Shown here one piece after another: positions 43,033 to 44,000 of a DNA stretch of 64,000 bases. A program made the translations under genes and the position numbers. This stretch comes from a phage. The notes under the pieces were generated by a model. The model saw only the letters and a list, made by a program, of their open reading frames with translations. It made no database searches and was not told the DNA's origin. Every line of letters begins with the position of its first letter. The stretch's first letter is position 1. The DNA is taken from sequence record NC_101835.1. One strand, 5' to 3'.

Positions 43033-43536
43033 AGCTGCCTCCTCTTCAAGTTATAGAAAAACTCACTGTATCGCTTTGTAACGAGCTTTTCTATCAAACT
43101 GGTGCGATTGCATTACCTGGTATAGTTTATATAGCTGTGGAGCGATTTAGGGGCCTTCTTGTCAGTTTCCACACATAAACTTCATCCAAGCTCGCGCGGG
43201 AGACTCTCAACCGACTCCTTACGGCGCTGGCAAGCTTTCGTCGGTGGTCCACATCAGTGCTCGGCCTTTGGCCTGCGCTATCGCTTCGCTCCCACACATG
43301 TTAACAGACCTGTATGTATGAACTTCTGTTATTGTGTGCACCAAAGAGGCCCGGCATCTCGCCCCTCGTAGGCGAGTGCCAATGAAGGGCCGACACTGCC
43401 CATAGTAAGTAATAAATTTAAAACATGGTACTTAGGATCTAGTATATTCTACATAAGTTAAGTATATGTACTTAGTACCATAAGTACTAGATCTTTTATT
43501 TTTTATTATTTAGTTATTTTAGTTATATTCTTTATG

Positions 43537-43574
43537 TGTCCGCGTGACGGACAGTAGTGTCCGTATCACGGACA
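43537..43574. promoter_or_regulatory. two tandem 17-bp palindromes TGTCCG-N5-CGGACA (operator-like)
   Basis: TGTCCGCGTGACGGACA and TGTCCGTATCACGGACA separated by 4 nt (centre-to-centre 21 bp) inside an AT-rich intergenic region. Confidence 0.4.
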
Positions 43575-43649
43575 GTTACTAACCTCTGTTCCAGAGCGAA
43601 CATAAAACATACGAATCCTTATAGTACAGATATTTAAGTTTTTACTGGT

Positions 43650-44000
43650 CTAACCAGTTGTTGACATTCGAATAACTTCTTCTGGTGGCAAAACTTTGGA
43701 AAATGTGCATCTTTTACCTCTCCCTTGTGTGGATATTTCAACCACTCCCGCACATTCTAAAGTTTTAACGCACGCTGCTGCTTTTGTTTTCTTTATTCCA
43801 ACATCTGCTGCAATTTTCCTTGTGCTGGGTGTGAAGCGTGAACTTCCTCCAAGCTTATACCAGTTGTGCAGGTAGCAGTATACGATCTTGTCATACAAGT
43901 CAAGAACAACAACCTCCCCAGTTGTGTCATTCAAAACTTTTGACATAGATAGTATTTCAAGGGGGACTTTAAGATATAGCAGCTTATCCCCATCTTTCAT
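43650..44000 (-). CDS. putative winged-helix DNA-binding protein
   Basis: 116 aa; segment RFTPSTRKIAADVGIKKTKAAACVKTLECAGVV has helix-turn-helix character; AGGAG RBS; sits next to the palindrome pair. Confidence 0.35.
   Translation of the reverse strand: MKDGDKLLYLKVPLEILSMSKVLNDTTGEVVVLDLYDKIVYCYLHNWYKLGGSSRFTPSTRKIAADVGIKKTKAAACVKTLECAGVVEISTQGRGKRCTFSKVLPPEEVIRMSTTG

Follow-up and report, generated by a model that had tools for sequence, protein, structure and literature searches.

A candidate iteron-type replication-origin module beside a RepA_N-like gene in rV5-like coliphages

The phage sequence record NC_101835.1 was analysed over a stretch of 64,000 nucleotides, hereafter the window, which is 97-99% identical to rV5-like coliphages (genus Vequintavirus) and corresponds to approximately 21.7-85.7 kb of rV5 coordinates. 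Within it, a gap of 617 nt (43033-43649) separates two minus-strand genes encoding proteins of 192 and 116 amino acids (aa), and it is this gap, together with the gene for the 116-aa protein, that we discuss here as a candidate replication origin. Downstream of the 116-aa gene the gap contains a pair of palindromes, an AT-rich stretch and a G+C-rich island. The region 42400-44800 is matched by 119 phage records, and all three components are conserved in 118 Vequintavirus records. The features of the locus are as follows.

42454-43032, minus strand: gene for the 192-aa protein (PHROG 12226, no assigned function); its synteny is kept in a sister lineage
43101-43117, no strand assigned: 17-mer GGTGCGATTGCATTACC beside the island, found in plasmids at the same relative place in the opposite orientation
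43140-43398, minus strand (tentative): G+C-rich non-coding base-paired element of 259 bp, the island
43399-43535, no strand assigned: AT-rich stretch of 137 bp with 21% G+C, candidate DNA-unwinding element
43536-43576, no strand assigned: two 21-bp units, each with a 17-bp palindrome, candidate iterons for dimers of the 116-aa protein
43577-43649, no strand assigned: variable spacer that separates the 116-aa stop codon from the repeats, the least conserved part of the gap
43650-44000, minus strand: gene for the 116-aa winged-helix protein, by sequence and predicted fold a homologue of the N-terminal DNA-binding and dimerisation domain of RepA_N initiators
44035-44064, minus strand: sigma-70-type early promoter (TTGACA-N18-TATTTT, with TG) preceding the 116-aa gene, the nearest consensus promoter upstream of the gap

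In an alignment of 11 Vequintavirus genomes, the mean pairwise identity was highest in the palindromes (98.2%), followed by the AT-rich stretch (97.3%), the island (95.0%), the leader of the 192-aa gene (94.7%) and the spacer after the 116-aa stop codon (88.5%).

The palindromes, of the form TGTCCG-N5-CGGACA, had been picked out in an earlier reading of the same DNA without database searches (the sequence-only reading), and they do lie two helical turns apart: TGTCCGCGTGACGGACA occupies 43537-43553 and TGTCCGTATCACGGACA 43558-43574, giving a period of 21 bp, and the second is a perfect 7-3-7 palindrome (TGTCCGT-ATC-ACGGACA). The units lie 75 nt from the stop codon of the 116-aa gene, an arrangement of tandem semi-palindromic repeats near the gene that is found in RepA_N-type systems. 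When up to two mismatches were allowed, the 64-kb window contained one further, imperfect match, against 1.28 expected; at up to one mismatch, no copy was found in the parts of rV5 outside the window that were examined (1-22 kb and 85-135 kb, 72 kb in all, or about 136 kb together with the window). The motif is thus unique in these roughly 136 kb of phage genome. The number of units varies among the 11 genomes, with four in most, three in FFH2 and A147 and two in the window, and the genomes differ by the precise loss of entire units (21-22 or 43 bp). From their sequence, the palindromes thus appear to behave as a tandem iteron array of 2-4 copies; other depositors have annotated them as an unnamed 'repeat_region' from Tandem Repeats Finder.

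The 116-aa protein is annotated as a 'putative transcriptional regulator' by most depositors and as a 'replication initiation protein' in RefSeq, the latter label being a family transfer. Pfam (hmmscan, E <= 0.1) gave only matches below the cut-off, to DUF6945 and HTH_36 and then to the helix-turn-helix (HTH) domains of LexA, CodY and TrmB, and no match to RepA_N (PF06970) at this threshold. The protein falls in PHROG family 12838, with weaker matches to families 8102, 428 and 270, all of which are labelled 'replication initiation protein', and members of the family match the PHROG 'replication initiation O-like' families weakly. It is a small family: a search among 5.8 billion proteins yielded 5 clusters with the single sequence and 10 with the profile, about ten proteins reached E <= 0.001 among 1.84 billion representatives, and a viral-contig search with the 116-aa protein returned no relatives. 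Among solved structures, the sole significant match by sequence was 4RO3 (phmmer E 7.4e-6; family profile E 4.8e-12, residues 5-117 of 120), which is the N-terminal domain of RepA from the Vibrio cholerae satellite PLE (Barth et al. 2020, PMC7145576), so that the protein has sequence homology to a characterised initiator. The predicted structure leads in the same direction. An AlphaFold model built on nine family members (predicted local distance difference test, pLDDT, 81; predicted template modelling score, pTM, 0.77) placed 4RO3 at the top of a Foldseek search of the PDB (template modelling score, TM, 0.64), with 4PQL, 4PT7 and 5KBJ next, all within ranks 1-6, and 4PTA at rank 21; RepA_N initiators ranked above the CodY, ArsR and MarR regulators. 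The model built on the single sequence (pLDDT 43) was unusable. The winged helix that the sequence-only reading had proposed for the product of the gene beside the gap is supported by the model, the fold search and the match to 4RO3, and the predicted domain is of the RepA_N / DnaD-NTD-like winged-helix N-terminal type. A C-terminal host-specific domain is lacking: the chain stops after residue 116 and folds in the model as one domain. Extensions do occur in more distant members of the family, which are 182-228 aa long. By sequence and predicted fold, then, the 116-aa protein is a RepA_N-type initiator N-terminal domain. Two further candidates were set aside: distantly related proteins in other phages (L084 and L087) are encoded beside large intergenic regions with no comparable repeat array, and a partition centromere of the TubR kind was rejected on an E value of 0.63 to TubR and the absence of a partition NTPase nearby.

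PLE RepA was assigned to the RepA_N family of initiators by structure rather than by BLAST. Electrophoretic mobility shift assay and deletion established that its target is a semi-palindromic direct repeat within a non-coding origin, and it supports replication only during infection by phage ICP1, whose proteins include a T7-like polymerase, a helicase-primase of the gp4d type and an SF1B helicase (PMC7145576). The same three kinds of protein are encoded by rV5: a T7-like (Pol I-type) DNA polymerase, a primase-helicase of the gp4d/DnaB type and a helicase of the PIF1/RecD type (PMC3606486).

Directly adjoining the palindromic repeats is the most AT-rich DNA of the window. The lowest G+C content over 120 nt (19%) lies within 43392-43546, and the next lowest value in the other parts of rV5 examined was 26%. 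The stretch carries interleaved short repeats, with GTACTTAG at 43428 and 43468 and the inverted pair GATCTAGTA (43436-43444) and TACTAGATC (43485-43493). The direct and inverted repeats reported by the sequence-only reading are thus present, its 10-mers matching at 9 of 10 positions. An AT-rich unwinding element beside iterons is what iteron-type theta origins possess. DnaA boxes were not enriched in the gap (one relaxed match versus about 1.9 expected from the window density) and no integration host factor (IHF) consensus was found in it; neither is required for a phage with its own replisome.

The best indirect support for binding of the palindromes by the 116-aa protein comes from a sister lineage, in which protein and repeats have changed together. 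This lineage comprises the IMG/VR contig L012 and at least 10 metagenome contigs, the longest of 139 kb; six of them (L089-L094) were examined. The gene order is the same: phosphoesterase, winged-helix gene, gap, 192-aa gene. The winged-helix protein has 143 aa and is only 27% identical to the 116-aa protein (E 5e-7), and directly after its stop codon come about five palindromic sites of a different type, TCTGATACA-N4-TGTATCAGA. These are followed by a different, polypyrimidine AT-rich stretch and then by the same G+C-rich island. Judging from these sequences, the initiator-like protein and its repeats would form an exchangeable pair, and the island the constant part. A similar pattern of exchangeable initiators and repeats is known from lambdoid O/ori modules and iteron plasmids.

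Taken together, these data lead us to propose that the gap and the adjoining gene constitute an iteron-type replication-origin module of rV5-like phages, a reading to which we assign a probability of roughly 55%. The sequence-only reading had left the choice between operator sites and a replication origin; we favour the origin given the RepA_N-type protein and the 2-4 iterons, unique in the genome and beside the most AT-rich DNA, and the operator is weakened by the lack of a sigma-70-like promoter in the gap and the position of the sites downstream of the gene. The scheme that we infer for protein binding, DNA melting, loading of the replisome and the part played by the island is as follows. 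The 116-aa protein would be made early from the promoter at 44035-44064, and its dimers would bind the 17-bp palindromes. The 21-bp spacing would place these dimers on one helical face, allowing cooperative binding and distortion of the DNA, and the distortion could open the adjoining 137-bp AT-rich stretch, onto which the T7-like replisome of the phage (Pol I-type polymerase, gp4-type primase-helicase, SF1B helicase) might then load. The initiator and the repeats would thus be the exchangeable specificity part, and the island a constant part read by conserved phage machinery, either as exposed single-stranded DNA or as a transcript.

Several observations weigh against this proposal. The cumulative GC-skew minimum of the window, at about 45 kb, is 1.5 kb from the gap and agrees with an origin there, but the skew switch coincides with the switch in transcription direction and is confounded by it; the GC/AT-skew search for an origin in the rV5 paper likewise found only transcription-direction switches (PMC3606486). 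The winged-helix fold is common to many repressors, and a protein reduced to the N-terminal domain, without the C-terminal domain of full RepA_N initiators, may just as well be a simple DNA-binding regulator. The palindromes are without the poly-A tract that RepA_N iterons typically have at their centre. The repeats are located inside an early operon, so that a role as roadblock or activator site is also possible. Finally, the published 2.6-kb gene-free region of rV5 that lies outside the window (NC_011041, 104013-106618, equivalent to L014 19014-21619) may be another region that acts in cis or encodes RNA, or may itself hold the origin. In that region, CCCACACA followed by a hairpin recurs about every 400 nt, and a 49-nt triple hairpin is 88% identical to positions 10886-10934 of a small E. 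coli plasmid (L016). When the island was compared with the 2.6-kb region, no similarity was found beyond the short pattern of CCCACACA plus hairpin.

The transcription signals bear on how the gap is read. Early promoters of the phage closely resemble the sigma-70 consensus: the window contains 17 copies of the pattern TTGACA-N16-18-TANNNT where 3.2 would be expected, in agreement with the published table of rV5 promoters (PMC3606486 Table S4), and the same paper lists no promoter or terminator in the gap. Nor did we find one: the gap has no sigma-70 consensus promoter (best matches 8-8.5 of 12, among them two of 8 of 12 by the repeats, at 43534-43505 on the minus strand and 43502-43529 on the plus strand) and no intrinsic terminator, and the palindromes coincide with no recognisable promoter. 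Since it lacks a consensus promoter, the 192-aa gene is probably transcribed through the gap, which would then be transcribed as part of the early minus-strand operon.

We now turn to the island, whose G+C content is 56%, rising to 65% over 60 nt, where the window averages 44%. The G+C-rich segment poor in open reading frames (ORFs) described by the sequence-only reading is indeed there, with limits of 43140-43398, as is its hairpin CTCGCC-N7-GGCGAG, at 43358-43376. Its paired elements and invariant core are the following.

43210-43215 / 43240-43245: helix A
43223-43240: invariant core of the island
43293-43307 / 43326-43338: hairpin with a deletable tip
43348-43352 / 43387-43391, 43353-43356 / 43377-43380 and 43358-43363 / 43371-43376: helix B stack

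The island is common to both phage lineages and to 13-kb E. coli plasmids, and comparison with the latter reveals how it is conserved. Between the window and plasmid p190, 10 of the 16 differences make up five compensatory pairs, and no pair is broken. In the 62-nt core, six of the nine differences form three compensatory pairs in helix A, where CCGAC/GTCGG has become CTGCC/GGCAG; in the 50-nt 3' block, four of the seven form two such pairs in the stacked hairpin with CTCGCC/GGCGAG. An 18-nt deletion in three phages takes away the tip of one hairpin only. The island is therefore best described, from sequence comparison, as a conserved base-paired element, which may act as RNA or as single-stranded DNA. 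One pair, read on the minus strand, is A-U in the window, G.U in Aya, L012 and L089, and G-C in the plasmids, whereas the plus strand would give A.C; a second hairpin shows the same A-U/G.U pattern, and one loop alternates between GUAA and GGAA on the minus strand. Because of the A-U/G.U/G-C series and the GUAA/GGAA loop, we favour the gene-sense (minus) strand as the folding strand, although one invariant predicted pair argues against folding of that strand. The folding energy of the single sequence was marginally better than that of shuffled sequences (z -1.7 and -1.9). RNAalifold on 12 phage islands gave a covariation term near zero on both strands, because the phage sequences are too similar, and different structures for the two strands. 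A search of the window and the gap against Rfam 15 with gathering and E-value thresholds found no credible match to the island, the chance-level matches mostly overlapping the AT-rich and palindromic part, and the plasmid and L012 copies of the island had no match at E <= 0.1. Protein coding in the island was rejected, as its ORFs have no PHROG matches and the paired phage-plasmid changes are radical in the one frame checked by eye; likewise, the 59 exact 18-mer matches to the island core in bacteria (one genome per species) were all ascribed to chance, with flank identity of at most 39%.

The plasmids that share the island are themselves unusual. When E. coli genomes and plasmids were searched with the island by sensitive BLAST, partial matches of 85% came up in circular 'plasmids' of 13.2-13.7 kb (L016, which is NZ_CP020521.1 of strain 190, L017-L020, L080 and L082 were the elements of this type considered) and in a 39.6-kb trimer of one of them. 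Two metagenome contigs belong to the same type. They encode a major capsid protein (PHROG 29) and HTH/Rep-like proteins, and other proteins resemble those of the phage: a Dit-like protein (50% identity), another tail-region protein (45%) and the tape-measure protein (25%). The related stretches of the window are 22771-23394, 24168-25886, 29804-30226 and 43187-43397. In the plasmids, the island homologue lies in a gene-free region of about 2.9 kb, 80-300 nt from direct-repeat iterons whose sequence differs among the variants, and in one plasmid an AT-rich repeat block stands between island and iterons, which is the order seen in the phage. No consensus promoter points into the island in these plasmids. 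Their 303-aa HTH protein was tried as a member of the initiator family, and only a 43-column HTH match to the family profile was obtained. The gene-free region of the plasmids (L016 12440-12640 and the equivalents in L018-L020, L080 and L082) is built as a mosaic: short, perfect hairpins, frequently in groups of three and with 3-nt loops, have CCCACACA between them, and the modules are present or absent in varying combinations. From their sequences, the 13-kb elements look like plasmid-borne satellites or miniature relatives of Vequintavirus.

Because the island is constant across two initiator specificities and the plasmids, and always lies beside iterons, we think that it may be the part recognised by conserved phage-encoded machinery. 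A further step would be to regard it as a constant base-paired, origin-associated element for the rV5-like replisome (or terminase) that the 13-kb satellites have copied beside their own iterons; with their own Rep protein and iterons these could then persist as plasmids, and through the shared element the helper could amplify or mobilise them. This extension is tentative, and we hold it to be possible rather than probable.

Other explanations of the locus must be weighed against the origin. In one, the 116-aa protein represses or activates transcription and has the phased palindromes as its operators, which would act either as a roadblock to early read-through or as upstream activator sites for a weak promoter within the AT-rich stretch, and so control the 192-aa gene with the genes and tRNAs that follow. 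The label given by most depositors is in line with this, as are the weak matches to LexA, CodY, TrmB and MarR DNA-binding domains and the spacing of the tandem dyads, two helical turns apart as in classical cooperative operators; weak promoter-like matches touch the repeats, and a joint change of protein and sites suits a regulator as well as an initiator. Nevertheless, the top matches by sequence and by fold are replication initiators and not regulators, no promoter in the gap comes near the strong consensus of this phage, and the sites are downstream of the protein's gene, away from its promoter. Only one site cluster occurs in about 136 kb, and a regulator would leave unexplained the extreme AT-rich stretch and the presence of the island beside plasmid iterons. 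We therefore consider transcriptional control unlikely as the function of the module.

The remaining alternatives concern the island. It could be a free-standing structured RNA, processed from the early minus-strand transcript and unrelated to the palindromes, with a role for instance in RNA metabolism given its tRNA, RNA ligase and polynucleotide kinase neighbours. The five compensatory pairs with none broken relative to the plasmid, the G.U intermediates, the GNRA-type loops (GUAA/GGAA, GAAA and GCGA) on the gene-sense strand, the exclusion of coding and a position inside an operon with no terminator before the island would all suit such an RNA, which we nonetheless find quite unlikely: no Rfam family was found, the folding z values are only marginal, covariation is almost nil within the phages, the island has no promoter or terminator of its own and no consensus promoter into it in the plasmids, and most of its hairpins are perfect Watson-Crick stems, as single-stranded DNA signals would also be. 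Alternatively, the island, alone or with its surroundings, might be the pac region of headful phages, of which the 13-kb satellite-like elements would carry a copy for the helper terminase. Satellites typically copy the cos or pac site of their helper, as in P4/P2 and the cos-type phage-inducible chromosomal islands (PICIs). Outside coding sequence, the phage and the 13-kb elements share no similarity longer than the island; the elements encode capsid, Dit and tape-measure proteins and have no annotated terminase, and headful packaging of the pac type has been inferred for a Vequintavirus (PMC13211470). We judge this very unlikely, however, as the terminase gene is about 4 kb from the island with the tRNA cluster in between, the neighbourhood is one of early genes, compensatory pairing is not expected of a double-stranded protein-binding site, the island lies beside iterons in phage and plasmids alike, and the neighbouring protein resembles RepA and not TerS in the Foldseek search. 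These explanations are not fully exclusive, and the island could be both transcribed and origin-associated.

The surroundings of the module are those of an early region. Upstream of the 116-aa gene, on the minus strand, come genes for a metallophosphoesterase and a polynucleotide-kinase-like protein, and then a divergently transcribed RNA ligase gene; downstream of the 192-aa gene lie small ORFs, a tRNA cluster (40432-41156) and the terminase region with its group I intron. The intron (37636-38478, minus strand) matches Rfam RF00028 at 50.3 bits, just over the gathering score. Within the tRNA cluster, a 99-nt tRNA-like gene (40589-40687, minus strand) scores 35.5 bits with the Rfam tRNA model; ARAGORN calls a 4-base anticodon for it, and related records label it 'tRNA-OTHER'. 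A second G+C-rich, gene-free island (up to 59% G+C) at 41650-41870 on the minus strand lies just upstream of a consensus promoter at 41620-41648, and was found to have no Rfam match and no similarity to the first. In the sister lineage, L012 has an extra ORF of 287 aa just downstream of the homologue of the 192-aa gene (157-1020, minus strand), and genes with KilA-N domains, in some cases with an ANT domain, lie between the kinase and phosphoesterase genes in L089 and L091-L093, which suggests a gene-insertion hotspot around the module.

In the literature, we found nothing on the gap, the rV5 origin or the rV5 transcriptome, nothing on these plasmid elements or on rV5 satellites, and no paper linking the protein to RepA_N or PLE RepA or describing the island. 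The origin of the rV5-like phages has so far remained unmapped, although the group is widely used in therapy and in biocontrol of E. coli O157, and the locus provides a concrete candidate made up of an initiator gene, 2-4 iterons, an unwinding element and a structured element. An initiator with iterons and an unwinding element is of a known kind; what would be new is the initiator limited to the N-terminal domain, the setting in a virulent phage of a Gram-negative host, the perfect palindromic iterons without a poly-A centre and the constant structured element held in common with capsid-encoding plasmids. If our proposal is true, RepA_N-type initiation, described in plasmids of Gram-positive bacteria and in a single Vibrio satellite, extends to a virulent coliphage in a form with the N-terminal domain only. 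The sharing of the island, for its part, points to a relationship between phage and small capsid-encoding plasmids that has not been described, and that could bear on gene transfer and on how phage therapy turns out.

How, then, does the module compare with known systems? For the island, the analogy is with ssi signals, G-sites and primosome assembly sites (the R1 G-site, F ssi, the ColE1 n' site and G4 oriC), which are hairpin-rich, about 100-250 nt long, located beside the unwinding region of an origin and conserved in their stems by pairing. Its position and covariation may be likened to theirs, whereas its GNRA-type loops would suggest RNA rather than DNA. For the repeats, the classical parallel is the lambda ori, with four tandem dyad-symmetric O sites spaced by about two turns and an AT-rich unwinding region directly after them; initiator and iterons of the lambda type also change together between related phages. 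The rV5-like phages resemble it in having tandem dyad sites, four in most of them, followed by an AT-rich region. In lambda, however, the ori lies inside the O gene and the C-terminal domain of O recruits P-DnaB, while here the sites are downstream of the 116-aa gene and the phage has its own replisome.

The protein itself belongs with the RepA_N initiators. The staphylococcal members (pSK41, pTZ2162; 4PT7, 4PTA, 4PQL and 5KBJ), which act as dimers on tandem semi-palindromic iterons and of which 5KBJ is bound to iteron DNA, share its predicted fold (Foldseek ranks 3-6, TM 0.54-0.61); unlike them, the phage protein has neither a match to PF06970 nor the C-terminal host-specific domain, and its setting is a phage element in a Gram-negative host. 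PLE RepA and its origin offer the fuller likeness: a homologous N-terminal domain (profile E 5e-12, TM 0.64), semi-palindromic direct repeats in a gene-free region beside the initiator gene, and a T7-like phage replisome with an SF1B helicase alongside. The two systems differ in that the rV5-like protein would perform its role, as predicted from sequence and model, with the N-terminal domain alone (116 aa) and in a virulent phage rather than a satellite; and in that its repeats are perfect palindromes with arms of 6-7 bp and a period of 21 bp, without a central poly-A tract, beyond which come an extremely AT-rich stretch and a structured element that is conserved.

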